64,000 nt of DNA, taken from Mustelus asterias (taxonomy: Eukaryota). Of the stretch, positions 1 through 50,590 are shown piece by piece. Within the stretch, counting starts at the first letter, position 1; each line of letters begins with the position of its first letter. A model generated the notes under the pieces. The model saw only the letters and a list, made by a program, of their open reading frames with translations. It was not told the origin of the DNA and did no database searches. The translations under genes were made by a program, and so were the position numbers. The stretch covers positions 248,001-312,000 of the forward strand of contig NW_027590224.1 of NCBI RefSeq assembly GCF_964213995.1, given 5' to 3'.

Positions 1-730
1 ACTGTCAGAGGGCCAGTACTGAGGGAGTGCCGCACTGTCAGAGGGTCAGTGCTGAGGGAGTGCCGCACTGTCAGAGGGTCAGTACTGAGGGAGTGCTGCA
101 CAGTCAGAGGGTCAAACTGAGGGAGTGCTGCACAGTCAGAGGGTCAGTGCTGAGGGAGTGCTGCACAGTCAGTGGGTCAAACTGAGGGACTGCTGCACTG
201 TCAAAGGGTCAGTACTGAGGGAGTGCTGCACAGTCAGAGGGTCAGTGCTGAGGGAGTGCCGCACTGTCAGAGGGTCAGTACTGAGGGAGTGCCGCACTGT
301 CAGAGGGTCAGTACTGAGGGAGTGCCGCACTGTCATAGGGTCAGTACTGAGAGAGTGCCGCACTGTCATAGGGTCAGTACTGAGGGAGTGCCGCACTGTC
401 AGATGGTCAGTGCTGAGGGAGTGCCGCACTGTCAGAGGGTCAGTTCTGAGGGAGTGCCGCACTGTCAGAGGGTCAGTGCTGAGGGAGTGCCACACTGTCA
501 GAGGGTCAGTTCTGAGGGAGTGCCGCAGTGTCAGAGGGTCAGTACTGAGGGAGTGCCGCACTGTCAGATGGTCAGTACTGAGGGAGTGCCGCACTGTCAG
601 AGGGTCAGTACTGAGGGAGTGCCGCACTGTCATAGGGTCAGTACTGAGGGAGTGCCGCACTGTCAGAGAGTCAGTACTGAAGGAGCACTGTACTGACAGT
701 CGGTGAGTAGTAAGGGAGTACTGCACATAC
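1..730. repeat. 33-bp minisatellite array 1 (unit ACTGTCAGAGGGTCAGTACTGAGGGAGTGCCGC), runs off the left edge
   Basis: Direct tandem repetition, ~21 copies visible; 11-aa periodic ORFs in several frames are a by-product. Confidence 0.97.
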
Positions 731-1068: not shown

Positions 1069-1362
1069 ATTGTACAGTGAGTACGAGGATCCGCTCCGAT
1101 GAAACAGATGGAGATCTCACTCTACAGGTGAGATTGTGTCCGTGGTGTTTGGGTGATGGGATCAGTGTCAGAACAGAAGTGTAGATCAGAGTGACACCAT
1201 GTTGAGTTACAGTGTTCAAGACTGCTTCAGGTACGTCAGTGGGAGTGTCCCAGGTTAAGACAGGTGCTGTTCCATTGCACGTTGTGTTGAAGGTACAGCT
1301 TATGTTCACATGCTTTCCTGCAATAACTTCAGCAGGGAATATCGTGGGTTTATCTGTGAAAT
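1069..1362 (-). CDS. Siglec/MAG-like gene A, C2-set Ig exon (DFTDKPTIFP...ISCTFNTTCNGTAP.LTW...LTCRV...LTVQ)
   Basis: 294 bp, phase 1-1, acceptor TTTGCTAG, donor GTAAGT; Ig Cys-Trp-Cys plus the extra B-C loop Cys typical of Siglec domain 2; 87/98 aa identical to the exon at 52004-52297. Confidence 0.92.
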
Positions 1363-1749
1363 CTAGCAAATGGAAAATGGAACTGGTTAGAGAGACATAA
1401 CATGAATCATCAGTTCAAATCCAAATCACAGTCCTGGGCAGGTCACGATGCTAGCGTGGGAATATCTGTGTTTCTGTCACCTCTGGTGCTTCTCCTCCTT
1501 TAATCCTTTCATTTATCGTGCTTACGCTGTCCATACTTACTAATCTGGGAGTGAGAACTCCGTATTCTGTTCCTGAAATATTTCTGGTGAAACGTCGATG
1601 GATTAATCAGAAAATTGTTGACAGAAAAGAGCAGTCGGAAGTAAATGGGGTGGAGGCAACTCCTCAACATGGTGACTTAATCCACAAACAGACTCTCAAA
1701 CTGGCATTCCTGAAAGCTGATTACTGCTACTATTGTCATTGATGAGAGA

Positions 1750-3170
1750 CTTGTCTTCTGGGCACAGAATATCAGTGCTCGTACTGTAGGACTGCAGAAT
1801 ACGGTAAAAGACTTGATGAAGTGGAGGAGAGAATCCCTATTGTCAAAAATGCAACTTCCTGGGTTGAGGCCCGCTGACAATCCTCCCCCTGAGGAAAGAA
1901 TCCTCCCCCTGATCATCCAGACTGGGTCCAGAAAGGGCTGGAAATCATGTAACAATGAAGGAGGTTATTGAATATAATTCAGGTCTTTCAAAAGCAAGCC
2001 ACATCTGGTTTAGTGGTCTCCTTGGATGCAGAGAAAGTTTCTGACCAGGTGGAATTATTTATTCCATACTTTGCAGAAGTTTGAGTTGGGGGCAGTTTGT
2101 TAAGTGGATACAGGGGCTTTATAAAAATCGACTGGTGGCAGTTCTTATTAGCGGTTACTGGTCTGATCATTTTAATCTCCAGCGAGTGACTAGTCAGGGC
2201 TGTCCATTTTCCCTGTTATTGTTTCCGATAACTATTGAGCCCCGAGCAGAAGCAATCAGACATGATTCCGTTACCTGGGCTATTTAGTGGAGGAAAGCAG
2301 AATAAGATTATGCTGTTCGTGGATGATGTGTTAATATTTGTATCTAAGCCGTATGTTTCTGTTCCCGCTTTTATTGATGTTTTGGGGAGATTCAGCCTGC
2401 ACCCCCTTTTTCTCGTATCCATAACCTGGGACGATCATTGTTGGTCCTCCTTACCGATATCACGGCTGGGTAGGAAAGCAATGATTAAAATAAGTGTGCT
2501 GCCTAGGTTATTTATAGCCTTTACAGATGCTGTCAATCTTGCTTTCTGCTAAGGTCCGAAAGGAAATTAATGGTGTGCTCAGTTCTTTTATATGGAACAA
2601 AAAGAAGCCTTGGTTAAAACTGGCCAAATTGCAGCTTCCCAGGTCATGGGGGACGAGGGGTATTAAATGGATCAGTTAGCCTCTTATTTTAGATTTATCT
2701 GAGTCTGTTAGAGGGTACTCTGTCTTGATATTGAAGCTGGGAAGTCTGTGTAGTCCTTACAGACCATGTTGTTTCGCAGGGATTTCAAGGCTGTGTCGGT
2801 CACATGTGAAAATCCTATAATCATTAACACAGAGTGTGGGGGATGGTGCGTGAGCTGGCAGGAGGATCTAATTTACATTTCACGCTCTCTCCCACTCAGG
2901 ACAATCCAAGTTCTCGCCAGGTCTTATTGACCATGAATTTGATACCTGGAGGGATAGCGGTCTTTGTAGGCTGGGTGACATGTTTACTGGCGCTTCCTTG
3001 TTATCTTTTGAGCAACTATGTCAACAGTTTGTAATCCCATGATACTCCTTTTTCAGATATCTACAACTCAGCGACTTTATCCTGAACAAGACATCTCTGC
3101 ATCTGGATACGAATGTGTCCCTGGTGGGAAACAATCCTGATATACAACAGCACGTAAGCAATTAATTGGC
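1750..3170 (+). mobile_element. Degraded L1-clade LINE ORF2 fragment
   Basis: Frameshifted peptides VSLDAEK, FVKWIQGLY, QGCPFSLLLF..IEP, LFVDDVLIF, WSSLPIS.LGR..IK..VLPR. Confidence 0.8.
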
Positions 3171-3224
3171 AAGTTTCATGATGCTTTATGTTCTGGATCC
3201 TGTGTGAATGTACGAGAGACACTG

Positions 3225-3440
3225 CAGTCTTGGGAAAAGGATTTTGCAGTGAAGATGAGAGATCGGCGCATGCACAGTTGCCCACTCAGCGTTATGCTGC
3301 CGCCCTCTCCAGCGGGAATAGGCCCTGCCCACCACTTTCCAGACTGAATCACGCTGAGGCACTCTGCATTGCACAGAGTTGGAGGGTAACTACGCCCAAA
3401 AACGTTAGGCACTTAGTTTAGTTTTAGAAGAATCCCGGCC
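3225..3440. mobile_element. Right end of a Harbinger-like MITE (same family as 8667-9607)
   Basis: Shares CTCTCCAGCGGGAATAGGCCC..GAATCACGCT with 12528-12570 and ends in TIR AGAATCCCGGCC. Confidence 0.65.
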
Positions 3441-4029
3441 ATACTTTCTATAATGTCTAACTTGCTCCTTCAAGGTTTTCCATAAGCTACGTAGCACCGC
3501 CTTTCACATGCTGTACACGAGGATGTGCACCATTTTGCCATCTTTTCATGGCTTTATCTCCTTTTCCCCCATCCTCTCATTTGTCCCTTCAATATTTTTT
3601 GTATAAATGGAAGTGCTGAGTGTAATGAACAAGCGTTGGTGTCCTCCTGTCTTTTTTGAGACATGGAGAAATGATTATGTTCTACTGACCCAGTTTTGAG
3701 AGTTTGTTGTGTTATTTGTAAGAATGGAAAAACTTTTTTAAAATACATAAAAAAGAATATATCACAATCCCACAAGAGAAAGCACTTTCACAAGGATGAT
3801 ATCAGAACGGAAAGGCGATTTCCTACTTTGAGACCCAGTGGAGTGTCTGTCACTCCGTTTAATACACTTTCACTCCAATTCAGAATCTCGGGTGGGGGGG
3901 AGGAGTCGCTCACAGTTCAGGGTGAACTGGCTCAATATGTTCACTGAAATTTGATAAATTTAAATTCTATCCTGTCTCCAACAGGACAGAAACAATTTGA
4001 AACAATCTCTGAACCAGCACCTGAAAGGG

Positions 4030-4205
4030 ATGATCAGGTTATTGATCACTTTGCTGTTTTTGGGAGTTCGTTGTGCACAAATTGGCCGCTGCAAAACCCA
4101 CATTAAAGCAAGGGCCACATTTCAGAAATCATTTCATTGTCTGTGAATCGATTTGGGATGTCCTGAGGTGGTGAAAGGTGCGATAGAAATGTGAGTCTTT
4201 TGTCA
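4030..4205 (+). mobile_element. DeuSINE/L2-type 3' tail remnant
   Basis: TTGCTGTTTTTGGGAG..GCACAAATTGGCCGCTG..GGGATGTCCTGAGGTGGTGAAAGGTGCGATAGAAATG; a paralogous copy lies at ~52595-52715. Confidence 0.55.
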
Positions 4206-4257
4206 ATATGTAAGACATTTAAACAGGATTAGGGAGATCAGTGGGTGGATAACTGAT

Positions 4258-5144
4258 TATTCATGTGGGTTATGATTATGGATGTGGGCCATCCCCACAC
4301 CCCCACTTCTTGCCTTCAAACAACCACGCAACCTCAAACAGACCATTATCCGCAGCAAACTACCCAGCCTTCAGGAGAACAGTGACCACGACACCACACA
4401 ACCCTGCCACAGCAACCTCTGCAAGACGTGCCGGATCATCGACACGGATGCCATCATCTCACGTGAGAACACCATCTACCAGGTACACGGTACCTACTCT
4501 TGCACCTCAGCCAACGTTGTCTACCTGATACGCTGCAGGAAAGGATGTCCCGAGGCATGGTACATTGGGGAAACCATGCAGACGCTACGACAACGGATGA
4601 ATGAACACCGCTCGACAATCACCAGGCAAGACTGTTCTCTTCCTGTGGGGGAGCACTTCAGCAGTCACGGGCATTCAGCCTCAGATCTTCAGGTAAGCGT
4701 TCTCCAAGGCGGCCTTCACGACACACGACAGCTGAGCAGAAACTGATAGCCAAGTTCCGCACACACGAGGACGGCCTAAACCGGGATGTTGGATTTATGT
4801 CACATTATCAGTAACCCCCACAGCTTGCCTCCTGGACTTGCAGGGTGTCCTGTCTGGAGACAATACACCTCTCTTTAACCTGTGCTTAATGCTCCCTCCA
4901 CCCACATTGTCTGTATCTTTAAGATCTGGCTGGCTGTAGGGATTCGCATTCTAATCAGTATTCTGTAACTTGATTTTGTGTCTCTGTGCACTGTTTGAGA
5001 GCACATTTCCACTCCATCTGACGAAGGAGCAGCGCTCCGAAAGCTAATGGTATTTACTACCAAATAAACCTGTTGGACTTTAACCTGGTGTTGTTAAAAC
5101 TCTTACTGTGTTCACCCCAGTCCAACGCCGGCATCTCCACATCA
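4258..5144 (+). mobile_element. 5'-truncated Penelope-like element (GIY-YIG endonuclease + pLTR)
   Basis: ORF 4282-4746 with NVVYLIRC..C..AWYIGET..TLRQRMNEH; 12-bp flanking duplication TGGATAACTGAT (4246-4257, 5145-5156); empty site in paralog at ~52763. Confidence 0.92.
5014..5050 (+). ncRNA. Minimal type I hammerhead ribozyme in Penelope pLTR
   Basis: Stem I CCAU/AUGG, core CUGACGA, stem II GGAGC-AGC-GCUCC, GAAA, palindromic AGCU stem III, predicted cleavage after CUA. Confidence 0.85.
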
Positions 5145-5261
5145 TGGATAACTGATAACATTGATGGTCACACACAACACATTTAATCATTGATATTATA
5201 GTGAGTATTAGCGGCTGCTTTAGGACTGAACTAGAAGTTATCACCAGGTTATTGATAATCA

Positions 5262-5845
5262 GCCAGGCTAATGAGGTTGGCTTGCTAGAGTATGAACTCC
5301 CTGATGAGTCCTTAACCTCCCCCCACCCCCCTCCCGGACATAAGTACCTCTGGAGGGTTACACCCTCTGGCAGGAGAAAAACCCAGAAGGCAGTGCCCTG
5401 GAGGGCAACAGATATGCTTCAATGTTCATTTTTGCTGTGTACAGTTTGCTGTGTTGTACTAATGTTTGCAATTTGTAAATTATGATTTCTAAATTGGGGT
5501 GTATTTAGAGGGCAATGCCCTGGAAAACTACAACCAACAACGAACCCTTCCGAAATAGAAGGTAGTAATTGTAGATGATTGATAAATGGATGGTGATTAT
5601 CTTTCATATTCATTATTTGAATAATTGTTTTGTAATAACGTATTTGTAATAAACAAAAGAAATCCCTGATCAGTCCTAATTGATGGTCCAATCAGGAAGC
5701 CTCATGCTCCCTATTTAAAGCAGGTGTGTCAGTCTCTCAGCCTGCCACAGCAGGAAGCTATCAAAAATGCTAGCTCTGTGTATATATTATAGTTGTAAAT
5801 AAAGTAGTTTGGTGACGGGACTTTTGCCTCCGTGGAGTTATTTCA
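5262..5845 (+). mobile_element. 3' end of an LTR retrotransposon with probable LTR at ~5500-5845
   Basis: Absent from the paralogous intron (~52870); G-run before TG at 5500, TATTTAAA, AATAAA at ~5798, ends in CA. Confidence 0.5.
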
Positions 5846-5884
5846 CAGACACTAGAATAAAGTATGATTTGAGATTTTAAAGTA

Positions 5885-6960
5885 TAAAGTTTTATTTATT
5901 GGTCAGAAGTAGGCTTGCATTAACACTGCAATGAAGTTACTGCGAAAATCCCCTAGTTGCCACACTCCAGTGCCTGTTCAGAAACACTGAGGGAGAATTT
6001 AGCATGGTCAATGCACCTAACCAGCACATCTTTTGGACTGTGGGAGGAAACTGGAGCACCCGGAGGAAACACACGCGGACACAGAAAGTAATTTAAATAG
6101 TAAAAAATTACAACATGCTACTGTGCAGAGGGACCTGGGGGTCCTTGTGCATGAATCGCAAAAACTCAGTTTGCAGGTGCAGCAGGTGATCAAGAAGGCA
6201 AATGGAATGTTGGCCTTTATTGCGAAGGGGATGGAGTATAAAAGCAGGGAGGTCTTGCTGCAATTGTACAAGGTACTGGTGAGGCCACAACTGGAGTACT
6301 GTGTGCAATTTTGGTCCCCTTGTTTGCGAAAGGATATATTGGCCTTGGAGGGAGTACAGAGAAGGTTCACCAGGTTGATACCGGAGATGAGGGGGTTAGC
6401 TTATGAGGAGAGATTGAGTAGATTGGGCCTGTACTCGTTGGAGTTTAGAAGGCTGAGGGGAGATCTTATAGAGACATATAAGATAATGAAGGGGCTAGAC
6501 AGGGTAGAGGCAGAGAGATTCTTTCCACTTCGAAAGGAAACAAGAACTAGAGGACACAGCCTCAAAATAAGGGGGAGTCAGTTTAGAACAGAGTTGAGGA
6601 GGAACTTCTTCTCTCAGAGGGTAGTGAATCTCTGGAATTCTCTGCCCATTGAAACAATGGAGGCTACCTCGTTAAATATGTTTAAGACACAGGTAGATAG
6701 ATTTCTGATCAATAAGAGAATTAAGGGTTATGGGGAGCGGGTGGGTAAGTGGAACTAAACCACTATCAGATCAGCCATGATCTTATTGAATGGCGGGGCA
6801 GGCTCGAGGGGCTAGATGGCCTACTCTTGCTCCTATTTCTCATGTACTTATGTAAAGAACATGCAAACTCCGCACAGACAGTGACCCTAGCCTGGAATTG
6901 AACCCGGGTCCCTGGCGCTGTGAGGCAGCAATGCTAATCACTTTGCCGCCATGCTGCCCT
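5885..6960 (-). mobile_element. tRNA-derived V-SINE split by a CR1 insertion
   Basis: V-domain GGACTGTGGGAGGAAACTGGAGCACCCGGAGGAAAC at ~6033-6068; tRNA-like head at 6857-6960. Confidence 0.85.
6086..6856 (+). mobile_element. CR1/HER1 LINE 3' fragment
   Basis: QRDLGVLVH, LYKVLVRPQLEYCVQFWSP, RRLRGDLIETYKI, FFSQRVVNLWNSLP; CR1 3' UTR. Confidence 0.95.
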
Positions 6961-7404
6961 TAAGTATTAGTGTTAAAATTGTGGAACAAAGAATAATTCT
7001 GACTGAATTCAGGGCAAAGCATTTGGCCATATTTCCCATCATGCTCTGCAAAGAGCCAAACTGGCTTGAAAAGAGATTCTCATACAGAAATTTCAGCCTA
7101 AAGTAAATACACTGAATTTCCTGAGCTGTGTGACTCAAACAAATGTCATCAGCAAAAAGAACAAAGACAGCGCAGGCAAACACTGGTGTTTCTATTTCTG
7201 ATGAAGAGATGGTGTTTTGGAATTTAAATCAATGTCGCAGTCTGCATCAGCAAAATACAACCCTCTTTTTTCTGAAAGATTACTGCAAGCAGCTTCAGGT
7301 AATGGAAGATTATGGAGAAAAGGAAAGTTATATGGCATGTTTCTGCTCGGGGTCAAAGTCCATGGTTTAAAAAGAGAATTTAGAACATTATTGGGTGATA
7401 TGAT

Positions 7405-7760
7405 TTTAGTCGATCTGGTCAGTTGCATTCGCTGCTTCCAATGCGGTCGACTCTTCATCGGAGGGACCAAATGCAGACGAGGTGACCACTTCTCAGAACT
7501 CCTTTGGTCCATCCATAAGCAGGACCCAGACCTTCCTGTCGCTTGCCATTTCAACGCACCACCCTGCTGTCCTGTCCACATGTCCGTCCTTGGCCTTTTG
7601 CAATGTTTCAATGAAGCCCAACACAAACTGGGGGAACAGCAGCTCATCTTCCGATTGGGCACTTTACAGCCTCCGGGACTGAACATTGAGATCAACAGCT
7701 TCAGAGCATGAACTCTCCCCTCCACCTTCACCCCATTTCCATTTATTTCATTTGATTTCT
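7405..7760 (+). mobile_element. Degraded Penelope GIY-YIG fragment (second family)
   Basis: LVSCIRCFQCGRLFIGGTK...LPVACHFN...EQQLIFRLGTLQPPGLNIE. Confidence 0.8.
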
Positions 7761-8039
7761 TCATTCTGTTAATATTACACCACAATTTCCAGGTTATTAG
7801 TTTGTATTCTCTTCTTTCCCATCCTGTTCACTCTGTCACCAGTTTAATTTGTCAGTCATCATTTTCAATCTGTGCTTGTGTTAAATCAGTAATCATGAGT
7901 ACAGTTTGTTCCCTTTAAATTGTGACTTGGAACAAACTATAAGTTTGAGTTTGAAAACAATTTGTAAACGTCACAGCTTGTGTTATTTCTCATTGAGTGC
8001 TCAATGTGAATTCTTGAGTAATTATAACACAGCACTTAC

Positions 8040-8408
8040 CAGAAACGTGAAGCCGGGTTACAGGGCGATAACTATGGCTGGGACCATTGTCAAATTCGAT
8101 TCTGAAATAATAAGGTCCTGCATCTCCCCGTGTGACGTTGTTTATAATCAGGGAACAGTCGCCATCTTGCAGGTCTCCAGACAACCGGGTCCGATGGCGG
8201 AACTGTGCCAGTGCGTGATTGTGATTCTTGGAGTGAAAGGCAATAGGCTTCCTCATTCTTCCCCATTCTTCGTTAAACCAGACTCCTCCTCGCGGCTGGT
8301 TTCCCAGACATGATGGATAGCTGTAATGACATGGAATCTGTACACACGAACCTTCCTCTGCTGTCACCTGTTGTGGAGTGGTGCCTTTCCACTCTTGTGA
8401 CTGTGCAG
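8040..8408 (-). CDS. Siglec/MAG-like gene A, V-set exon V1 (membrane-proximal)
   Basis: 369 bp, phase 1-1, acceptor TTTCTCTCCCCAG, donor GTAAGT; Siglec V signature CVQIPC, DCSL, YYFRIE with the sialic-acid-binding Arg and no F-strand Cys. Confidence 0.93.
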
Positions 8409-8509
8409 CTGGGGAGAGAAATATCAATATTTAACACTGAATGATTTGTAGACCCACTTATTTATAATTTACAGATGGGACTGAATTGGGGGAACAGTCA
8501 ATACTGAGG

Positions 8510-10200
8510 AGGACTGCAGTATTTTGGCACGACAAATAGGAAACAGAATATTATTTAAATGGAGAGAAGCTACAGGATGTGATATAGAGGGGTCTGGGTA
8601 TCCTTGTCCATGAACCACAGAAAGTCAGCATGCAGGAACAGCAGGTGAATAGGAAGGTCAATGTTGGGCCGCGATTCTCCCATCCCACTGCGCGAATATT
8701 TTAAGGCAGAGGATCGGGAGAATCGCGTATCTGTCGATTCACGGTGCTCCCACGAGCGTTCGCACCGCGCTTGCGTCTCCCAGGCCACTAGGCTGGGAGG
8801 CAGGGCTAACATTTAAATAGTATGTTACAAACTATTGAAATGCTATCAGCGGGCCCGGGACTGAATTCTCCAGGCCCGCTGGCATCTCCCACCCAGCCAG
8901 AATGTTTCACTCCACCTTTGGAGGGCTAGCGGCCTGACCATGCTGGAGTGAAGGGGGGCAATTGGGGCCCCCCAGAGGCTCAAGCGGCAGAGTGGGTGGT
9001 GCTCTCTGGGCACAGACACCTTGGGATTGCTAGCCTAGGCCCCGGCCACTGCGCAAGAGACAAAATGCCCATGTCCAGGGGGTACCTTGGCATCGCCCAT
9101 CGGGCATGGGGCAATGACAAGAGGGTGGGGCCTAGGGGTGGGCATAGAGGGCGATCGGTGGGGGTGAGGGGTTCCGCTGCCACTCTGCATAGAGATCAGT
9201 GGGGCTGGAGGCAGGCCAGCGATAGGGGTGGGTTGGGCGAGGGGTGGGGGGGGGGTGCGGATCAGGGCAGGCTCATGAATGGATGTGGGGCTGCGATCGT
9301 GCTGTGAGGGAGGGATTGGGGGGACAGCACTGCGGGGGTCCCAGGACAGCCAGCGATCGAGCTGACCAGCAAACTGCAGGCTGACAGTGCGGGGCCACTG
9401 TGCATGCACAGAGGCCCGCTTATTTCAGTCTCTCCAGCGTGAAGAGGCTCTGCCCCGTGAAAACTAATGATATTCACGCTGGTGTCCTCTGCATTGAACG
9501 GAGTGTGGGAGATTCTACTGTGAACTCCCACCGAAATAAACCAGCGTGAATTACTCCAGTTTTCCCGCAAATTCGACAATTTGAATTTAGTTGGGAGAAT
9601 TGCCCCCTTGGTTATTACTGCAGGAAGGATGGGGTATAAAAGTAGGGAAGTCTTGCTACAGCTGTACAGGGCATTGGTGAGACCACACTGGAGTACTAAT
9701 TACAGTTTCAATCTCCTTATTTAAGGAGAGTTCCACCTGCATTGGAGACAGTTCAGGGAGGGTTCACTGGGCTGATTGCTGGGATGAAGGTTTATCTTAT
9801 GAGGGAAGGTTGAGCAGGCTGGGCTGATATTTATTGGAGTTTAGAAGGAAAGGTGATCTTATTGAAGCATCTACGTTTCTGAGGGGGGTTTGACAGGGTG
9901 GATGCCGAGAGGATGTTTCCCCTTGTCAGAATGTGGAAACGGGGGCAAAGTTTCAAACTAAGGGGTCTCCCATTTAGGATGGAGATGAGAGGGTATTTCT
10001 TCTGTTAGAGGGTGGCTAGTCTGTGAAATTCTGTCCCACAGAGAGCGGTGGAGGCTGGGTCATTGAATATATTCAAGGCTGAGTTAGAGAGAGTTTCCTT
10101 CGACAGGGTGTTAAGGGTCATGTGAGGGCAGACAGGTAAGTGGAGTTGAGACCACAATCAGATGACCTACGTTCCTATTGAATGGCGGAACAGGCTCGAG
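8510..10200 (+). mobile_element. Degraded CR1 3' fragment interrupted by a MITE
   Basis: CR1 ORF2 C-terminal and 3' UTR similarity on both sides of 8667-9607. Confidence 0.85.
8667..9607. mobile_element. Non-autonomous DNA transposon, PIF/Harbinger-like MITE
   Basis: Imperfect TIRs GGCCGCGATTCTCCCA / TGGGAGAATTGCCCCC; 3-bp TSD TTG (8664-8666, 9608-9610). Confidence 0.8.
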
Positions 10201-11318
10201 TCTTTGAAGTACTGAACATTTGCTAAAAATGTTCAGCAGAGGTTCAGGCCAGGGTCCCTTTGCAGCCAGTCTCCACCGCTGGGGGCTTAATACCCTTCTG
10301 CACTTGTGGAAAGACACACACAATGCTGCACATTACCGAGGAAAATCCCCTCGACAGTGTAAGTGTTGGACTAATCACCTTAAATTCAGTAAATCAGGAA
10401 GCTCTCGTTTGGCTTTGGGATTTGGCATTCTCTAAATTAAAATAATAAAATCATATTTTGACAAGAAAAATAAGGAGTTTGTATATTACCTCAACAATAA
10501 GAATGGAACTTGGGTACGGGGTGGAAGAACAACAGCAACTGACACTTATAGAACAACGTTAACATATTGAAATGATACACAGGAGAATTATAAAACAATG
10601 TATGACATCCAGACACATGGGGAGAAGTTAGGGACAGGTTACCAAAAGCTCAGTCAAAGAGTTTGGTTTCTAAATACCGTCTTAAAGGGGGGAAGAGAGA
10701 GAGAACGAGAGAGAGATAGTGATAGAAGGAGATAGAGAGAAAGGCAGAGTGATTACGGAGGCAGTTCCAGAGTTCGGGCCCCAGGCAGCTGAAGGCACTG
10801 CCACCAATGGTGGAATGATAGAAATTGTGCCATTCTGATGGGACCGGAATTGGAGGAGCGCAGAGATGTCGGAAGATTTTAGGGCTGGAGGAGATTACAG
10901 AGAATGGGGAAAATAAGGACAAGATTTTTAAACTGGAGCCTTTGCTTGACCAGGAGTCAATCTGGGTCCGTGAGCACGGCAGGTGAGAGGGTAATGGGAC
11001 TAGGGGCAAGTTAACACACGGGCAGCAGAGATTTGGATGACCTCAAGTTTATGACGGATACAATGTGCGTTGGAATAGTCGAGTCTGGAGGTAAGGAAGA
11101 TATGGATGCGGGTTTCAGCAGCAGAGGAGCTGAGGAGAGTCAGACAGTGTCATGCAGGAGCAAATAGGCAGTCTTGGTGATATCACAGACCTGAGTTCAG
11201 ACAATCATCTCCAGATCAAATTTGACCCTAGGTTTGTGAACAGATTGGCCGAGTTGCCAGGGAGAGGGATGGAGTTGGTTGCTGGGGATCGGAGTTTGGA
11301 ATGGGGACTGAAAACAAT

Positions 11319-12686
11319 GGGGACGATTCTCCCAATCCGCTGCGTTGATTTTTTCAGTAAGAAGTTTAACAACACCAGGTTAAAGTCCAACAGGTTTATT
11401 TGGTAGCAAAAGCCACACAAGCTTTCGGAGCCTTCAGCTCCTTCTTCAGGTGAGTGGGAATTCTGTTCACAAACAAGGTATATAAAGACACAAACTCAAT
11501 TTACAGAATAATAGCTGTGAACCTATTTGTGAACAGAATTCCCACTCACCTGAAGAAGGGGCTTGGAGCTCCGAAAGCTTGTGTGGCTTTTGCTACCAAA
11601 GAAACCTGTTGGACTTTAACCTGGTGTTGTTAAACTTCTTACTGTGTTTACCCCAGTCCAACGCCGGCATCTCATCTTGATTTTTTCACACAGTGGACCA
11701 GGAGATTTAGGCAGCGCCCGATCTGCGGGTTCCGGGCTGGGCATCTCCCAGCGCCGGGTTTCAGGTAGCTTCAGCTCTGTGCTGGAAGTCAGCGCGGAGC
11801 CGCATTGGACATACAAATGAGCATGTAAATCTGATTTAGGTATGATTAGTGGGCCCGGGACTGAATTCTCCGAGCCCGCTAGCTTCTCTCCCCACCTCCC
11901 CACTGCCAGGAGTATTTCACACAAGCAGGGTGCACAATAGCTCCCCACTTTCGGGGAACTAGCGGCCCGACCCCACTGGAGTGAAGGGAGGGCAATCAGG
12001 GCCCCCCAGAGGGTCGAACAACAGAGGGATGCCCCCTGGCCATTGGCCTGGGCCAACTGGCACAGCCCACGGGACAAAGTACCAATGCTCAGAGAGCACC
12101 TTCGCACTGCCCCCCACCCCCTGGGCATGAGGCAATGCCAAGGGGGGTGGGGACTAATGAGGGGGCCTGAATGTGGAGGGGGGGGGGCAGGGCCTCCAGG
12201 GTTGATCTACCACTCTGCATTTGGGCTGAGTGACAGAGGGAGGGAGGCAGGCCATTGGGTCTGGCCATTGGGTCTGGCCATCAGGGTGGGAGGGCAGCCA
12301 CTGGGGGAGGGGCCAGGACTGCCGGGCGGGGCTGGAGGGGGTGGTGCCGGAGATCGGGGCTGTGGTGGGGATGCGGTCGAGGCGAGGCCCAGGCATGCTT
12401 CGGGGGCCAGTGATTGAGCTGGCCAGCAATTGGGAGGTCGGCAGACAGGGAGCACTGCGCATGCGTCGATCTCGGCGCTGACAGATCGGCGCATGCACAG
12501 TGGCCCGCTCAGCAGTATGCTGCCGGCCTCTCCAGCGGGAATAGGCCCCTCACTTCGTGAATCACGCTCGTGCTCTAAAGTGCACAGAGTGCGGGAGATT
12601 CAGTTTTTAACTCCCACTGAAAAAAACGGGGATTTACTCCTGTTTTCACGCGAATCACTTGGAATATTTTTGGAAGAATCCTGGCC
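11319..12686. mobile_element. PIF/Harbinger-like MITE
   Basis: TIRs GGGGACGATTCTCCCAA / TTGGAAGAATCCTGGCC; 3-bp TSD AAT (11316-11318, 12687-12689); internal blocks shared with 8667-9607. Confidence 0.82.
11357..11676. mobile_element. Penelope inverted pLTR pair with two hammerhead motifs
   Basis: ~115-bp inverted arms; 12-bp TSD TTGATTTTTTCA; hammerhead on + at 11547-11583 and on - at ~11416-11452. Confidence 0.88.
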
Positions 12687-13750
12687 AATGGCTTCAGTCT
12701 TCCCAATATTTATTTGGAAGTAATTTCAGCTCCTTCTCTTGCAGGATGTTGGATGACAAGTTTGATGATTTAACAAGTGCGGAGGAATCGAGAGAGGTGG
12801 GGGTGAGGTAGAGCTGGGTGTTGTCAGTGTACATGTGAAAAGTGATGTTCCAAAGCCATTGTAAGTGATTCTCTGGTTATGGTTAGATGGATAGAAATGG
12901 AACCAGGTGAGAGCAGTCCCACCCAGCTGGACAACGTTGTAGAGCATTGGCGGAAGATGGTGTGGTGAACCATGTCAAAGGCTGCAGACTGGTCGACAAG
13001 AATGCGGAGGGAAAGATTCACTTTGTCACGGACACACAGAATGTCATCAGTGACTTTGATAAGAACTGTTTCAGTACTGTGACTGCGGCAGTAACCTGAT
13101 TGGAGCGATTCGAACATGGAATCCAAGAAAGAGTGGAGCAGGTTCTGGAGATAAATTCACAGATTTTGTATAGGAAAGAGAGGTTGGAGATGGGACTGGA
13201 GTTTAGAAGGATGGTGGGGTCATGGATTATTTCTTTGAGGAGAGAGACGATGTTGGCAGATTTGAAGGAGAGAGGGACGACACATGAAGATAGAGAACCA
13301 TTAATAATATCAGTAGACATGGAGACCAGGAGCGGGGAGGTTATGTGGTCAGCAGTTTACTGGGAATAGGGTCGAGGGAATAAGCTGTGGCTCTCATGGA
13401 GGACATGAGGGAAGAAAGGTGAGAAACTGGAGGAAGATGAGAGTTCAGGGATAGGGTGGAGGGGGTGGAGATCGGATGTGGGATTGGGGGCATCGGAGAA
13501 GTCTGACAGTCAAGAGGCAAAGCTTCAATAGGGGGAAAGTGTCATTACTCCTCAGCGAGGTTTCCGTTAAGGTTCTGATGTTGATTCAATCAAACACAAT
13601 AACTTAATGGATCTCCGAGTAGAAATACACAAATCCTTAAAAATAGTAACGCTGCTTAACACGGCCACAAAACAAGCAAATCAAACACCAGGATGTGTTG
13701 TTTTCCATTGAGTGTTGAATGTGAATTGTTGCTTTTAATACATCACTTAC

Positions 13751-14104
13751 CAGAAACACGAAGCTGGGTAACTGGTTTGTAATTGTATTTATCTCTGCCA
13801 GCAAATTCTACTCTGAAATAATAACTCCCTCTATCTTGCCATTCGATGTTGTTTATAATCAGGGAACAGTCTCCATCTTGCAGATTTCCAGACAGCCAGG
13901 TCCGATGGCGGAACTTTGGTGATATATCATTGTCGTTCTTGGAGTGAAAGGCGATTTTCTTCTCATTGTCATACCAGATTCCATCTCGTGATTGGTTTGC
14001 CAAACGCGATGGATATCTGTAATGACATCGAATCTGTACACACGAACCTGTCTGCGCTGTCACCTGTCGTTGAATGTCTGCTTCCCACTCCTGTGACAGT
14101 CCAA
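13751..14104 (-). CDS. Siglec/MAG-like gene A, V-set exon V2 (distal)
   Basis: 354 bp, phase 1-1, acceptor TTTCTCTCCCCAG, donor GTAAGT; CVQIRC, DCSL, YYFRVE, no stops. Confidence 0.93.
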
Positions 14105-14639
14105 CTGGGGAGAGAAATATCAACATTTAATATTGGATGGTTTGTAAATTCTTTAGATTCGATAATCCATTCCCCCCCGCCACTGGTGTACAGTGGCTGC
14201 AGTGTGGACCATCCACAGAACACACAAGGAACTCCCCAACGTTACACAATGGATGGAAGAGAATCCTGGACACAGGAGTGGACAAGTTCATTCTACATTG
14301 GCTCATGGTCCTCAGGACCCTGTTTATTGAAGCCAGTCTTCCACCCAGCACACATTCTGCAAGATGCACCAATTCAGATGTATGCAGGCTGGACAATGGA
14401 TTAGGAGCCCTCAGAACTCCCACCATTGTCACCGTCATGAATCATTAATTAGCCTCACCTTCTGGATCCTCATTGTCTCAGACTGTGGTTCTTATTGTAA
14501 TTTGTGTTTCATGGATAGCAGCATGACATCACTGAAGGGCAAGTGTGTCATGTGATCTAGTCTCAGTTTCACTTTGAGCAGAACACAGCACACACATCTC
14601 TGCTGCTAGTGTCTTCAAGCTTTCTATCCATGTACATCT

Positions 14640-15665
14640 GTTCTCTTCTGACCTCAGAGATGTCGTCATCACCACCATCTTCTAGAAAGGAGACAAAGAG
14701 GATTGTGGGAACGACTGAGGAATCTCCCTGCTCTACATCACCGGGAAGATCATTTCCCGAATCCTCTCTACCTTTTCCCAGTCTCTGAAGTAATGCTTCC
14801 GGAATGCCAGTATGGCTTCCGGGCAAACCTTGGAACAGTGGACATGATTTTCGCAGCTCGACAAATTGAAGAGAAATGCCAGGAGCAACATCAACCACGC
14901 TACATGACCTTCATCGATCTGACCAAAGCTATTGACTCAGTTACTTGGTAAGTGCTGAATGAGCCTGTCAAAGGCTAGCAGTCCAGAAAAATTCATCAAC
15001 ATCCTCTGACTTCCACAACAAGATGTCAGTGACAGTCCTCGCCAACAAAATAAGACAGAAACCTTCAAGGTCAAGCCTGCAATCAAGCAGGATGTGTCAT
15101 CACACCCGCACCCATTTCACCATCTTCATCGGCACGCTCATTCAGCTTGTCCAGAACAAACTTCCCAGTGGAGTGGACATCATCTACAGGATGGACGGAA
15201 AACCTTTCAACCTCAACTGGTTGAAATCCAAGAAGAAAATTACACTGACATTGCTGGTGGAACTTCAGTATGTGGAGATGCTGGCGTTGGACCGGGGTGA
15301 ACACAGTAAGAGTTTTAACAACACCAGGTTAAAGTCCAACAGGTTTATTTTGTAGCAAATACCATAAGCTTTCGGAGGAACCTCCTGATTGGAGTGACAC
15401 AATTCCTCAAGGACACCTGGCAAGGGGAAATCTGGAGAAGGAGCCTGAGAAAGGAATGCCAGCGATCTTGAGTCCAAGGACCAAACCCACCTCCCAGAAA
15501 CACCTGCCGAGTGTGAGGTCAAAGATGCGACTCTAGGATCGGCACGTTGGCCGTGCAAGATGCACAGAACCCATGTCCAATAACACGGACTTTCTGAGCG
15601 AGACAATCATATTCATGAGCGAGTGATCGCCAAAGAAGAAGATGATCTGTCCTCATGTGCTTTGT
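14640..15665 (+). mobile_element. Degraded RTE-clade LINE
   Basis: LPECQYGFRANLGTVDMIFAARQIEEKCQEQ..FIDLTKA.DSV; GVDIIYRMDGKPFNL. Confidence 0.85.
15270..15377 (-). mobile_element. Penelope pLTR fragment
   Basis: Reverse complement of 5035-5142, truncated inside the hammerhead. Confidence 0.85.
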
Positions 15666-15666
15666 C

Positions 15667-15983
15667 TAAATCATAAAATCCCGACAGCACAGAAAGAGGC
15701 CATTTGGCCCATCGAGTCTGAACCGACCACAATCCCACCCAGGGCCTATTCCCGTGACCCTCATTTACCCTGCTAATCCCCCTGACACTCGGGAGCAAAT
15801 TAGCATGGCCAATCAGCCTAACCCGCACATCTTTGGACTGTGGGAGGAAACCAGAGCACCCGGAGGAAACCCACACAGACACAGGGAGAACGTGCAAACT
15901 CCACACAGACAGTGACCTGAGGCCAGAATTGAACCTGGGTCCCTGGCACTGAGTGGCAGCAATGCTAACCACTGTGCCACCCT
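15667..15983 (-). mobile_element. HE1-type V-SINE
   Basis: tRNA head, V-domain and CR1-like tail; matches 60431-60782 in reverse. Confidence 0.92.
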
Positions 15984-16019
15984 AAATTAATTAATTTACA
16001 ACACATTTACAAAATCCCT

Positions 16020-18600
16020 TTTGAATTATCAGCGCCTTTTTATCATTCTAAAAGCACAACATGATCTTCAGCAGTGGTCAAACATTCTGGCAGCAAGATT
16101 CAGTACAGCTACAACATGGTGAGCAGCCTTACATCGCGCTACATGTCATGAGACCACTCTCGTTATTTTGGTCTGTCCATAACAGTCGCAGTGTTGGAGA
16201 GTGTGGAAATCACAGCTGCTGACTGCATGGGGAATCTTTCAAGATGAAGCACGGACATAAAGTGATTGACAATCCAAAGCATGAGAGTGGGTACACAATG
16301 AGGTCACAAGCGTTGATCGATATTTCACATTACACACATATGAAATTAATTGCAGATTGTCATCCATAATGATCTCCAGGCACACAAACTAAACTGAAAA
16401 TGTCAGAGTTTGCGCAACAGTTGTACTTAACAGTTATTATACAATTGTTGAAAATTTCACATGTTTCAGACTGTTAATCTCATGGAAAACGTAGATATTG
16501 TCACACCGTCTGAAGGGTTGCCAAGGTTTGAATTATCTATCCTCAGGAAGCTGACAACTACTCGTCATTGGCTAAGATTGACACAGAGGAAAGTGCTAAT
16601 ATACTGCCCCTGTGAATTCTAAAAGACATGTATCCACGTACATGGAAGGCCATGGTGAAAGCTGCCATTGAAACTTCCAGCACACAACTGTTCATTAATT
16701 CCACGCATGGGTTCCATAATCCTGGAGTACAAGCACAATCAATGCCTTCTGGGTGTCCCTGATGCTCTACATTGGGGAGACTAAAGGCCTAGTGATTGCA
16801 GGTCTACCACCCGTGGGAGTAATAGTCAGACACCAGATGCAGACGAACCCTGAAAACTACTCATATCAACTTAGTTCATGATCTAAAATAACCAGAAAGG
16901 TTCCAACAAAATTGATAGGGAGCTATACCTTGTTATATTTGCAGGAGAATGCAGGGGTGTCATTTGATCTGGGACATTTTGCACAATGCAAATGCCAGCA
17001 GATGCAAAACGAAATGGCGTAGGTTTCGACACTACAAAAACTGAAAAACTAGGGGCCGATTCTCCCAGCCCTCTGTGCTACTCTAACAGCGCAACGGGTT
17101 GGGAGGCATCAGCGGAGCATTTAGCGGACGCACCATGGCCTCAGTGCGTCTCCGGCTCCAAGTTTTTTTTAGAGTTATCATCTCCACACCAGAAATTGGC
17201 ACAGAACTGATGTAAATATTTCAATTTCATTAGTGGGCTGGGGATTCAACTCTCCGGGACCGCGAGCGTCTCCCCCTCTCGCCAGAAGTGGTTCACTCCA
17301 GCGGGGTTTACAACAGTGCGGGGGGGGTTGGACATGACATCGGGGCTGGCCCGGAGAGGTTCGGGAGGCCATCCTCTGGGGAGGAGGGAGTTGTTGACGG
17401 GTCGGAGGGGCAGAGATGTGTTGTTGTGGGGCTGGCCAGCGATCGGGAGGCTGGCACTGCGGGGCTATTGTGCATGCGTTCTCTGCACTGACAGATGACG
17501 CATGCTCAGTGGCCCAGACAGCGCTATGCTGGCGGCCTCTCCAGTCGGAATATTCCCAGTACACTGATTTTCAGAGTGAACCTTGCTATGGCACTCCGTG
17601 GTGCACAGACTGGGAGATTCATTCTGAAAATCACGCTAAATAAACCAACGTGATTTACTCCAGTTTTCATGCAATTCGGAATTTGGAATTTTTTTGGGAG
17701 AATCACCACGTATCGGTGGGAAATTGCCTGATTCAAGTCAGCATGTCCAAGATGGTGCAAGTCCATTTTGGCCTCACTGGGATGAGTTCGGCATCTCCCA
17801 GGATCATTTTTAAAGGCAGGCCAACCAATCATACTGGAATCTTTGTGACCTGATACTTTTCAGCAACTTGATCACTCAAACATGGCCGAACTAAGTGTTA
17901 TTTTCAGTTTATTTGGTGTGCCCAGAGAGATCATAGTAGATAATGGTCTGAAAATTACTGGTAAGCCAATTCAGGATTTGAGTGAGAAGTGAAATATTGA
18001 TCACACTACTTTTCATTACTCTAGATCTGAATGAGTGATCTGCAGAGTGAGACCCTTAATCTTCAAATGTAGACAGACCAAGGAAGATCTGCACATTGCA
18101 ATGTTCTTTCTGAGACCAACACCTTTAAATGCAACTACTCCATCACTAGCAGAGCTCACATTTGACCAGTGCGTACCAATTTACCCAATCTGACCCATTC
18201 TACTCTCTCAGAAACTAGACAGCAACATTTAAAGCTGCAAGAGAAGATGACAAATGTGCACAAGAAAATGCAGGCACAGTATTGCCAAGTTTACAGCTGG
18301 GACAAGTTCCGAGGCAGGATTTGTCCAGACCAAGGGTTCTATGTAGTCGTGCCGCACAAAGGTGGGACGGTGAGGTGTATCCGAGGACTAATCTGTTTCT
18401 TCCCAATTCCTCAATCACTGGAGCACCGTAGATTAGATTCCAAATGAAACCAGGAACAACATCCAAGAATGAGAATCCCACAGATCATTGCAAGCAATTA
18501 AATAAACTTCCAGACAAGGTCACCATTACAAGATCTAGGTGCACCAGCAGTTTACCTCTCTATCTGAGAGACTGATGGCTTCATTGGCTCTATACACTCA
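16020..18600 (+). mobile_element. Highly degraded Ty3/Gypsy pol remnant
   Basis: FGVPREIIVDNG integrase motif at ~17912-17947; boundaries uncertain. Confidence 0.55.
17052..17709. mobile_element. PIF/Harbinger-like MITE, shorter copy
   Basis: TIRs GGGGCCGATTCTCCCA / TGGGAGAATCACCAC; TSD imperfect (CTA/GTA). Confidence 0.72.
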
Positions 18601-18709
18601 CGTAATGGAAACTAAAGATGAACATGACATCAGAAACCTCTCACTCTCTGTCCTACCCATGGCTTCAGCAGGAACCTGAGAAGTTGCGGATATGGGTCTT
18701 AAATCATCA

Positions 18710-18910
18710 GATTGTAGAATGATCCAGCACAGAACGAGGCCATTCGACCATCTTGACTGTGTTGGCTCTTTGAAGGATCTGTCCAATTTGTCCCACTCTA
18801 CTTGCTCTTTCCCCCATAGCCCTGTAAATATCCCTTTCAAGTATTGATCCAATTGCCCCTTTTGACTGTTCCTGTTGAATCTGCTTCCAGCGTCTTTTCA
18901 GGGAGTGAGT
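18710..18910 (-). mobile_element. CR1 3' end fragment
   Basis: CR1 3' UTR (AGCACAGAACGAGGCCATTCGACC) in reverse. Confidence 0.7.
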
Positions 18911-19584
18911 CAATTGTCTCCTTCAGAGCTGCAAAGCTCAGAGATTGTGTGAAATTTAAACTTTACAGCAGCTTAGAGGCAATCATGAGAACTCAAAATA
19001 TTTCACACTTTTACACACTGACTGCTCTGTCTTCCTTCTCTTTTTCAGTTATCTTGCACCCTGATCGATGTTCCTAGAAATGGTGAGAATGGACAGGGGG
19101 TGTGATGTCTATTCTAGGAACTGCTGTGTTGTCGTCATGGAAAATTCAGATTAAAATGAGCAAAAGTCACACATTTCAGGCCATTGCCATTGGTGTCCGA
19201 GCATTGGGATAGAATTCCCCCAGTTTTTACCCCTGTTCCTCCACTCAAACCATCATCCCGTCACTCGCTGAGATACACTGGCTCCCAGCAACACCTCGAT
19301 TTTAAGATTGTCATCCGCAATTTCCAAACCTTCCATCTCCCCTCTCCACTCCCTATCTCTATATCCTCCACCTGCACTGCAACCCTCCTTCTGCTCTGCT
19401 CCAACTCTGCTGTCAGACGGGGAGTCAGTGTGTATCAGTGAGCACAGGGGTGATGGGTGATTGGGACTGGGTGTGAGTTTGTACACTGGGTCACTGCTGA
19501 ATTGGTTCCCAATTAGAGCTCAATAAGAATCTCTTTCACAAAGATTATTAACCATAAATCTGTCCGAGCTGACGATGATATTAC

Positions 19585-19624
19585 CTTGGAGAAGGGACAG
19601 GAGGAAGTAAGATTTCCTGATCAT
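19585..19624 (-). CDS. Gene A leader exon, coding part (MIRKSYFLLSLLQ + G); full exon 19585-19666
   Basis: ATG at 19624 in ACAATGA context, donor AAG|GTAATA phase 1, acceptor CTCCTTTCTCTTTCAG; conserved 82-bp exon at 56400-56481; signal peptide completed by the start of the V exons. Confidence 0.88.
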
Positions 19625-19702
19625 TGTCCACTCCCAGATATTTCACCAGCTTCTTGCTCTCAAGTTCTGAAAGAGAAAGGAGTTAATGAAACCTCACCTC
19701 TT

Positions 19703-22302: not shown

Positions 22303-22460
22303 CCAGGACCTGTCCGATTGTTTGCCTGGGGACTAACTGCCGACCCACTCTGCTTGGGCTGAATGTCCTCTTCCTGTGCTGCTCCCTCTGTGTGTTCAAT
22401 TAGAAAGCGATGATGTGGTGTCGAAAGGAGGAAGTACAAAGAAACTGAGAAACTCTGCAA
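22303..22460 (-). promoter_or_regulatory. Putative non-coding exon 1 and proximal promoter of gene A
   Basis: Donor TGG|GTAAGT at 22303/22302; homologous to 59087-59240; TGTGGT (RUNX, 22414-22419), GAGGAAGT (ETS/PU.1, 22428-22435) and GAAACTGAGAAACT (IRF-like, 22441-22454) cluster. Confidence 0.6.
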
Positions 22461-22639: not shown

Positions 22640-23560
22640 ACGAAGGGAGAACTGCATTGTTGAAGTGTCAGTACTGAGGGAGTGCTGCACTGTCAGAGGG
22701 TCAGTGCTGAGGGAGTGTTGCACTGTCAGAGGGTCAGTACAGAGGGAGTGCCGGATTGTCACAAGATCAGTACTGAGGGAGTGCCGCATTGTCACAAGAT
22801 CAGTACTGAGGGAGTGCTGCACTGTCACAACGTCAGTACTGAGCGAGTGCCGCACTGTCCGAGGGTCCGTACTGAGGGAGTGCCGCACCCTTGGAGGATC
22901 AGAACTAAGGGACCTATGCACTTTTGGGGGGTCAGTACTGAGGGAGTGCTGCGCTCTCGGAGGGTCAGAACTAAGGGAGTGCCGCACTGTCAGAGGGTCA
23001 GTACTGAGGGAGTGCCGCACTGTCAGAGTGTCAGTACTGAGGGAGTGCCGCACTGTCAGAGGGTCAGTACTGAGGGAGTGCCGCACTGTCAGAGGGTCAG
23101 TACTGAGGGAGTGCCGCACTGTCAGAGTGTCAGTACTGAGGGAGTGCCGCACTGTCAGAGGGTCAGTACTGAGGGAGTGCCGCACTGTCAGAGGGTCAGT
23201 ACTGAGGGGGTGCCGCACTGTCAGAGTGTCAGTACTGAGGGAGTGCCGCACTGTCAGAGTGTCAGTACTGAGGGAGTGCCGCACTGTCAGAGGGTCAGTA
23301 CTGAGGGAGTGCCACACTGTCAGAGGGTCAGTACTGAGGGAGTGCCGCACTGTCAGAGGGTCAGTACTGAGGGAGTGCCGCACTGTCAGAGGGTCAGTGC
23401 TGAGGGAGTGCCGCACTGTCAGAGGGTCAGTACTGAGGGAGTGCCGCACTGTCAGAGGGTCAGTACTGAGGGAGTGCCGCACTGTCAGAGGGTCAGTACT
23501 GAGCGAGCGCTGCACTCTCCGAGGATCAGTACTGAGGAAGTTCAGCACTGTCGGTGGCAG
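22640..23560. repeat. 33-bp minisatellite array 2
   Basis: ~27 tandem copies with degenerate ends, same orientation as array 1. Confidence 0.97.
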
Positions 23561-32591: not shown

Positions 32592-33675
32592 GGTCAGAGG
32601 GTCAGTACTGAGGGAGTGCCGCACTGTCAGAGGGTCAGTACTGAGGGAGTGCCGCACTGTCAGAGGGTCAGTACTGAGGGAGTGCAGCACTGTCAGAGGG
32701 TCAGTACTGAGGGAGTGCCGCACTGTCAGAGGGTCAGTACTGAGGGAGTGCAGCACTGTCAGAGGGTCAGTACTGAGGGAGTGCCGCACTGTCAGAGGGT
32801 CAGTGCTGAGGGAGTGCTGCACTGTCAGAGGGTCAGTACTGAGGGAGTGCCGCACTGTCAGAGGGTCAGTACTGAGGGAGTGCCGCACTGTCAGAGGGTC
32901 AGTACTGAGGGAGTGCTGCACTGTCAGAGGGTCAATACTGAGGGAGTGTCGCACTGTCAGAGGGTCAGTACTAAGGGAGTGCTGCACTGTCAGAGGGTCA
33001 GTACTGAGGGAGTGCCGCACTGTCAGAGGGTCAGTACTGAGGGAGTGCCGCACTGTCAGAGGGTCAGTACTGAGGGAGTGCTGCACTGTCAGAGGGTCAA
33101 TACTGAGGGAGTGTCGCACTGTCAGAGGGTCAGTACTAAGGGAGTGCTGCACTGTCAGAGGGTCAGTACTGAGGGAGTGCCGCACTGTCAGAGGGTCAGT
33201 ACTGAGGGAGTGCCGCACTGTCAGAGGGTCAGTGCTGAGGGAGTGCTGCACTGTCAGAGGGTCAGTACTAAGGGAGTGCTGCACTGTCAGAGGGTCAGTA
33301 CTGACGGAGTGCCGCACTGTCAGAGGGTCAGTGCTGAGGGAGTGCTGCACTGTCAGAGGATCAGTACTAAGGGAGTGCTGCACTGTCAGAGGGTCAGTAC
33401 TGAGGGAGTGCCGCACTGTCAGAGGGTCAGTACTGAGGGAGTGCCGCACTGTCAGAGGGTCAGTACTGACGGAGTGCCGCACTGTCAGAGGGTCAGTGCT
33501 GAGGGAGTGCCGCACTGTCAGAGGATCAGTACTAAGGGAGTGCTGCACTGTCAGAGGGTCAGTACTGAGGGAGTGCCGCACTGTCAGAGGGTCAGTGCTG
33601 AGGGAGTGCCGCACTGTCAGAGGGTCAGTACTGACGGAGTGCCGCACTGTCAGAGGGTCAGTACTGAGGGAGTGT
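32592..33675. repeat. 33-bp minisatellite array 3
   Basis: ~33 homogeneous copies with higher-order duplicated variant blocks. Confidence 0.97.
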
Positions 33676-50225: not shown

Positions 50226-50469
50226 AACTATTTGACACTGAGCTACATAAGGAGTGGTTTTGACAGGCGACTTGTCAAAGTTAAGTTTTAGTATGTTTCT
50301 TAAAGGAGAGAGAGCTTATGTAAGTATCTTTGTGCTTGTAAAAGTATGTAATAAACTTTGGAAGCTCCATATTCCTCCATAATAATGGGAACAAAAAGTT
50401 TAAATTCACGGCCAACACTTCATGCAGGCCTGAGGCAGGTTCTGTATGGTAATTCTGTAAGTGTGTCTG

Positions 50470-50590
50470 TAATTATGGACCCCTCCACTGCTTCATATTC
50501 ATTCTCTGCCACACATTGATAGTCTCCAGTGACCCTGGATGTAACGTGAGGAATCACCAACCACAGCTCATTGTTGGAACTCGTTCTATT
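50470..50590 (-). pseudogene. Half Ig-domain exon remnant of gene B (NRTSSNNELWLVIPHVTSRVTGDYQCVAENEYEAVEGSIIT)
   Basis: Clear E-F-G strand motif L.L.I..V....GDYQCVAEN; in-frame TGA upstream, no B-strand Cys or C-strand Trp, no phase-1 acceptor or donor. Confidence 0.75.

Follow-up and report, generated by a model that had tools for sequence, protein, structure and literature searches.

Siglecs are, as a rule, built with a single V-set domain, and Siglec-XII is the only member described with two (passages of PMC7876704 and PMC6288428); the general layout of the family and its paired receptors are outlined in excerpts of PMC13358205. Passages of a teleost study (PMC7226832), which make no mention of sharks, state that fish genomes lack inhibitory CD33-related Siglecs, and two further papers mention the family in passing (PMC8455134 and PMC13262535). 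Our literature search, which missed most subscription papers and all supplements, found no description of shark Siglecs with several V domains. We studied a 64,000-nucleotide stretch of the 3.7-Gb genome of the shark Mustelus asterias (G000), hereafter the window, corresponding to positions 248001-312000 of the 637-kb contig NW_027590224.1 (C192; G000:C192:248001-312000). It holds two Siglec-like genes, A and B, and gene A has two intact V-set exons, V2 and V1. We think it probable that these two exons are joined in one transcript; the predicted product is an inhibitory receptor in which two domains of the sialic-acid type are stacked and probably locked by a disulfide.

Gene A resembles primate Siglec-12/human Siglec-XII (SIGLEC12) in presenting two N-terminal V-set domains, a C2-set domain, a transmembrane (TM) segment and an SHP-recruiting tail, the function of the latter being predicted in the shark. 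Human Siglec-XII has lost the essential Arg in both V domains (a passage of PMC7876704), whereas both shark V domains retain it. Multiple V domains are moreover a family-wide trait in sharks, with as many as three V exons in a single G000 gene and as many as six or seven in database models, and the shark tandem likely arose independently of that of Siglec-12. MAG/Siglec-4 (PDB 5LF5 and 5LFR) was the best solved match of V1 (E 5.6e-14) and C2 (E 2.4e-8) and shares its inter-domain Cys positions and F-strand Arg with the shark domains; however, MAG is a conserved myelin gene with one V domain, whereas the shark genes form a cluster of many, rapidly changing copies, some of inhibitory and others of activating type. 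The CD33-related Siglecs (CD33, Siglec-5/14, -7, -8, -10 and -11/16) are alike in V and C2 matches, in gene clustering and in the presence of members with an immunoreceptor tyrosine-based inhibitory motif (ITIM) beside members with a charged TM segment, but in mammals they have one V domain, unlike gene A. Shark models named by NCBI as 'sialic acid-binding Ig-like lectin 12/13/8' (e.g., XP_038670868.1 and XP_078092344.1) belong to the same family, and many have two to seven V domains. These names reflect automatic similarity, some of the models fuse neighbouring genes, and none among the matches was identical to gene A.

The exons of gene A, and the intron between its V exons, are listed below; here and throughout, coordinates are in window numbering unless prefixed by a contig, and all exons of genes A and B lie on the minus strand.

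19585-19666, minus strand: leader exon; ATG at 19624, 40 coding nucleotides (13 codons plus 1 nucleotide), phase-1 donor
13751-14104, minus strand: V2, first-position V-set exon; 354 nucleotides, open, phase 1-1, AG/GT flanks
8409-13750, minus strand: V2-V1 intron; 5,342 nucleotides, its 3' part of the type that precedes internal V exons
8040-8408, minus strand: V1, internal-class V-set exon; 369 nucleotides, open, phase 1-1, AG/GT flanks
1069-1362, minus strand: first C2-set exon; 294 nucleotides, open, phase 1-1, AG/GT flanks
C192:245949-246230, minus strand: broken immunoglobulin (Ig) exon after C2, outside the window; TAG at the 17th codon, GC donor, intact acceptor
C192:244366-244647, 242132-242407 and 237273-237563, minus strand: three intact Ig exons, downstream and outside the window
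C192:235015-235111, minus strand: TM exon, outside the window
C192:232487-232568 and 229926-230150, minus strand: two tail exons, outside the window
22303-22387, minus strand: probable upstream non-coding exon; boundaries judged by eye, in a block common with the region upstream of the gene B leader

The exon order was thus L-V2-V1-C2-(broken Ig)-three Ig-TM-tail. The original prediction, made from the letters of the window, had described a gene with a single leader, two open V exons in phase 1-1 and one C2 exon. The positions of the leader, V2, V1 and C2 exons were confirmed; the single C2 holds within the window, which contains only three V, two C2 and two leader exons of Ig/Siglec kind, but not for the whole gene, in which four more Ig exons (one broken) follow. 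As had also been proposed, neither leader nor C2 lies between the V exons. A scan of the V2-V1 intron gave no leader-like ATG exon, while in the two remaining introns it recovered six weak candidates, and it also recovered the true leader. Profiles of V and C domains had no hit in the V2-V1 intron, nor did the downstream Ig, TM and tail exons. The three predicted forms L-V2-V1-C2, L-V2-C2 and L-V1-C2 are all in frame, open to the final stop over 769, 646 and 651 codons, respectively, when the one broken exon is skipped. V1 and V2 were identical at 71 of 122 aligned residues, and their acceptors were indeed identical across the last 19 nucleotides and their donors across 7; nearly identical flanks were found at every V exon of the family, so this identity does not mark a special link between the two. 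The last tail exon encodes the motifs VLYANI and TEYAQI, which, judged against consensus patterns, we take to be ITIM-like and like an immunoreceptor tyrosine-based switch motif, respectively. With its TM exon and such a tail, gene A looks like an inhibitory Siglec-like receptor, with splicing and phosphatase recruitment predicted.

The stop in the exon after C2 could instead mean that gene A is decaying, or that it produces a truncated, secreted V-V-C2 protein. Inclusion of that exon, whose acceptor is intact, ends the frame at codon 370; no protein identical to V1 occurred among 91 database matches, and several copies in the cluster are broken. The donor of this exon is, however, GC and not GT, and the exon is symmetric, so that skipping preserves the frame; the six exons that follow are intact through the tail, and the conserved framework is kept in both V exons. 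Out of 43 conserved columns V2 missed two and V1 one, and the mean ratio of nonsynonymous to synonymous substitution rates relative to paralogs was 0.64 for V2 and 0.48 for V1. We consider decay or truncation improbable.

Both V domains exceeded the Pfam V-set and Ig_CD22 cut-offs, and their closest solved structures were Siglecs, the best matches being divided between MAG and Siglec-5/sialoadhesin. The F-strand Arg (codons starting at 13814 in V2 and at 8103 in V1), which the original prediction had rightly noted in both, aligned with the Arg of MAG, CD33, Siglec-5 and sialoadhesin; the role of this residue in MAG (R118) is treated in part of PMC5150538. V2 has Cys at B-5, in the B strand and in the E strand, together with the F-strand Arg and a BC loop free of Cys. 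According to the same portion of PMC5150538, C37 in Ig1 of MAG is disulfide-linked to C165 in Ig2. The B-5 Cys of the shark V domains aligned to C37, and the B+6 Cys of the shark C2 to C165 and to the corresponding inter-domain Cys of CD33. Both the B-E intra-sheet Cys pair and the inter-domain pair between V and Ig2 are thus in place, as judged from alignment to MAG and CD33. C2-set domains, one TM segment and a cytoplasmic tail were all found in gene A under the inferred splicing. A Foldseek search returned generic Ig matches, with pIgR first and MAG from rank 10, and an AlphaFold model of a basking-shark L-V-V-C2 protein (P0012; 16-row alignment) had three Ig folds with a mean predicted local distance difference test score of 63 and a predicted template-modelling score of 0.50. 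Assignment of gene A to the Siglec-like genes, as originally proposed on the basis of its sequence, is supported by the Pfam and solved-structure matches and the Arg. The gene departs from the usual single-V layout in its two intact V exons, which are no bar to membership, Siglec-12 being the accepted exception.

V1 carries an extra Cys in the BC loop, at B+7 (codon 8308-8310, minus strand). By analogy with the MAG C37-C165 bond, its predicted disulfide partner is the B-5 Cys of V2, the codon of which begins at 14042. In G000 the extra Cys occurred in all eight intact internal V exons, V1 included, vs none of 13 first V exons, and also in two internal exons among the broken copies. In database models of carcharhiniform, lamniform and orectolobiform sharks it was present in 36 of 43 internal vs 3 of 52 first domains, seven of the 36 being models of the C20 paralogs of G000 itself and 37 further domains being excluded because their position was unclear or the motif missing. 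Corresponding counts were 3/12 vs 0/12 in rays and 1/1 vs 0/10 in squalomorphs plus the horn shark, and further one-V models had it in 0 of 42 scorable cases. Two ray models (P0009 and P0011) have four V domains with the extra Cys in the third only, and some of their domains have Lys or Ser in place of Arg. First/internal pairs sharing 101-104 of 121 residues are still split into His and Cys at this site, which indicates that the Cys tracks position and not kinship. Exon starts follow the same division: first V exons begin with TT (V-G/A-L-S; V-G-L-S in V2), internal ones with CT (A-E/K/A-P/L/Q-S; A-A-Q-S in V1). First V exons, V2 presumably among them, would complete the signal peptide, and internal starts would yield a polar linker. 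The upstream introns are also class-specific: matches longer than 200 nucleotides link that of V2 to the introns of 10 out of 14 other first-type V exons, and matches longer than 90 nucleotides link that of V1 to the introns of 7 out of 9 other internal V exons and of none of 15 first-type ones.

These features suggest how tandem V domains could be held. In a V-V-C2 chain the B-5 Cys of the first V is left partnerless unless the second V supplies a BC-loop Cys, from which we infer a V2-V1 disulfide and hence tandem use. V2 would complete the signal peptide and sit at the tip of the receptor. In one-V Siglecs the B-5 Cys bonds the BC-loop Cys of the following C2; that of V2 would instead bond the BC-loop Cys of V1, whose own B-5 Cys would bond C2. 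In L-V2-V1-C2 all eight framework and linking-site Cys of the three domains would be paired, together with the two of C2. Free thiols would number none in L-V2-C2 and one, at the tip, in L-V1-C2. In the resulting V2-V1-C2 rod the two Arg sites would be spaced by one domain, which may give greater avidity or a broader range of sialoglycans read, with signalling through SHP phosphatases. Joint splicing of V2 and V1 meets no obstacle of frame or spacing such as a mutually exclusive cassette might have, and the database models of relatives join V exons.

Sequencing data were searched for exon joins, and no run on record as RNA was found to hold the stretch. The matched contigs covered V2 to C2, the leader exon being uncovered, and repeats dominated the matches. 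In run X1, presumed to be RNA and derived from another organism, a relative, the match of one contig stops one base beyond the C2 acceptor; the 127 letters upstream of that point are different, the pattern expected of a V-C2 join of a paralog. Another X1 contig, with 8 differences and 6 gap letters across 216 nucleotides of V1, ends exactly at the V1 acceptor and has 109 other letters upstream. All 15 leaders inspected end in AG, which would match two bases further, whereas four family V exons end in A, which would match none; judged by these coordinates, the contig fits a join of a V exon to V1 rather than a leader join, and it weakly points to such a join. One X1 contig extends 60 nucleotides into the intron above V2, showing that unspliced or DNA material was present.

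Several points weigh against tandem use. No V2-V1 junction was seen among the contig joints listed; run X1 contributed a small share, and its RNA status is a guess. At the white-shark locus of XP_041037226-30, isoform model X4 (P0111, XP_041037230.1) joins the leader to a Cys-bearing second V and skips the first, and at the catshark locus of XP_038670868-74, isoform models X1, X2 and X3 differ in their first and middle V exons ahead of a shared last V. Database models can also fuse genes: P0015 combines V exons from a pair of C20 genes that our map shows to be distinct. The Cys counts come from related domains and are hence not phylogenetically independent, and there are exceptions: a frameshifted first-position V (C192:204811) has the extra Cys and a 5'-truncated internal V (C20:725966) does not, it is missing from 7 of the 43 internal domains in sharks and from 9 of the 12 in rays, and three one-V white-shark models carry it. 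The B+7 position is one residue off the B+6 of C2, and the A-A-Q-S start of V1 might equally complete a signal peptide. Lastly, the extra Cys is absent from a frog model (P0175) in which two V domains lie next to each other; per this model, tandem V domains may recur outside sharks.

The isoform models, together with the fact that all three forms of gene A are in frame, suit the explanation that V exons are optional cassettes, with L-V2-C2, L-V1-C2 and L-V2-V1-C2 all made in substantial amounts and splicing setting valency or ligand preference; the spare Cys of L-V1-C2 would then be free or form dimers. Two splice variants of SIGLEC12 have reportedly been described, going by the title of a 2001 reference by Foussias. 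The locking of the Cys, exon starts and upstream introns to position speaks against this explanation, as do the catshark isoforms themselves, all of which retain three or four V domains in tandem. Moreover, none of 131 proteins represented a multi-V gene with its first V joined directly to C2, and isoform models among near-identical exons may reflect mis-mapped reads. We regard freely optional V exons as unlikely, though the most serious of the alternatives. The original prediction had left the choice between a bivalent receptor and a splice-selected cassette; we favour tandem use as better supported than either/or splicing, while optional skipping of a V may still occur.

Origin of the V pair by unequal crossover had been proposed because V1 seemed to resemble V3, the V exon of gene B, and because the intron upstream of V2 matches that upstream of V3. 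The coding resemblance is not special: V3 ranked only 19th of 21 family exons against V1, with 82.5% nucleotide identity, vs 87.7% for an internal exon of C20. The intron match is a family trait, in view of the first-type introns counted above. Of the 15 best protein matches of V1 (75-81%), 14 were internal domains from other sharks, and in trees limited to shark and ray sequences V1 fell into one clade with 11 V domains, all internal, from two catshark species (FastTree 0.977; SH-aLRT, the Shimodaira-Hasegawa-like approximate likelihood ratio test, 97, in a quick tree of 63 of the 120 domains); V2 was a long branch of unsure placement in the quick tree. The V1 clade and the class-specific introns speak against gene A as a recent crossover hybrid with gene B, and together they indicate that the V2-V1 pair was inherited from an older multi-V gene. 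We regard the arrangement as old and family-wide, with V number changing through exon duplication; unequal crossover may well alter V number within the cluster.

The pair could also stem from a misassembly, from a second gene start concealed in the V2-V1 intron or from a single recent crossover. C192 lies apart from the main cluster on C20, and the V2-V1 stretch was not spanned in full by any one DNA contig. On the other side, the window contains no N, the intron is free of leader and C2, the intron flank of V1 is of the internal type, and the same order of a first-class and then an internal-class V was found in four other leader-bearing G000 genes and in other sharks. DNA contigs of runs X2 and X3, which may derive from the source sample, match parts of the introns with 0-2 differences over 300-900 nucleotides. 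Such an accidental origin seems to us very improbable.

Genome searches recovered no fewer than 13 full-length first-C2 copies, 16 leaders and about two dozen closely related V exons, most of them within C20:100-770 kb. The family map combined 490 kb from C20, 164 kb from C192 and a copy on C10 that the searches had yielded. Among the 13 genes, five had a leader and two or three intact V exons before C2, namely gene A and those with C20 leaders at 384.6, 461.9, 682.7 and 754.3 kb. A sixth had two intact and two truncated V exons, with no leader found by the searches, and the remaining seven had one V each. Two to seven adjacent V domains were present in 31 of 91 database models, which are predictions, from 12 shark and ray species. 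At C20:717682-726804 (L017-L018), where no leader was found, a first-V/internal-V pair is duplicated, with one exon of each pair truncated and one intact V left per class. At C20:606647-626774 (L045-L047), a gene with one V has some ten more Ig exons produced by repeated internal duplication, including two partial first-C2 copies. More divergent V exons of Siglec type, 26-40% identical to V1 and in several cases bearing the Arg, were located at C20:879584, 892975, 981727 and 5465272-5501129, C2756:40167 and C1061:34561, near the cluster and on small contigs.

Gene B, the neighbour of gene A in the window, has a single V exon:

56400-56481, minus strand: leader exon; coding part 56400-56439
54527-54892, minus strand: V3, single V exon; first-position type, no BC-loop Cys
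52004-52297, minus strand: C2 exon; protein 89% identical to the gene A C2
43193-43332, minus strand: probable terminal exon; TM with Arg plus a short tail, join inferred from database models of relatives

Of a second Ig exon, just a fragment remains in gene B (window 50348-50620). Judged from its sequence, gene B is likely of the activating type, and TM exons similar to its own lie at C20:415501, 647417 and 737822. Mammalian DAP12-coupled Siglecs have Lys in the TM segment, vs the Arg of the shark activating-type TM. The predicted inhibitory gene A adjoins an activating-type gene, like paired receptors. Five arrays of one 33-bp minisatellite occur in the window (1-685, 22667-23552, 32593-33674, 50919-51962 and 57587-58817), shortly after each of the two C2 exons and a little upstream of each gene, and the same repeat follows C2 in four C20 genes; it could promote unequal exchange. 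Above the gene B leader lies a third copy of the intron segment found upstream of first V exons (window 59415-59738), with no V exon behind it, possibly the remnant of a deleted V. A stretch matching the probable non-coding exon of gene A (22303-22387) serves as a cytoplasmic-tail exon in database models of other family members, and copies of this type are located at C20:151794, 188278, 208632, 229706, 384142, 539084 and 660904. This resemblance may account for read-through models in which adjacent genes are merged.

In reviews, a single V-set domain is the norm for Siglecs and Siglec-12 the exception, and inhibitory CD33-like Siglecs are deemed absent from fish. Sharks appear to hold a clustered family of inhibitory and activating-type members that stacks several Arg-bearing V domains, with gene A as one ordinary member, and a single position-locked Cys suggests how the V stack is held. 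Sialic acid binding by the internal V domain and the tuning of self-recognition by valency are now testable. A broader proposal, which we hold as speculative and rather doubtful, is that elasmobranch Siglecs are disulfide-chained arrays of two to seven Arg-bearing V domains built from cap and linker exon classes, with cells also selecting V exons by splicing, a choice hinted at by the isoform models of the catshark. If true, one locus would give rise to receptors that differ in valency and glycan specificity, i.e., a combinatorial reading of sialoglycans without DNA rearrangement.

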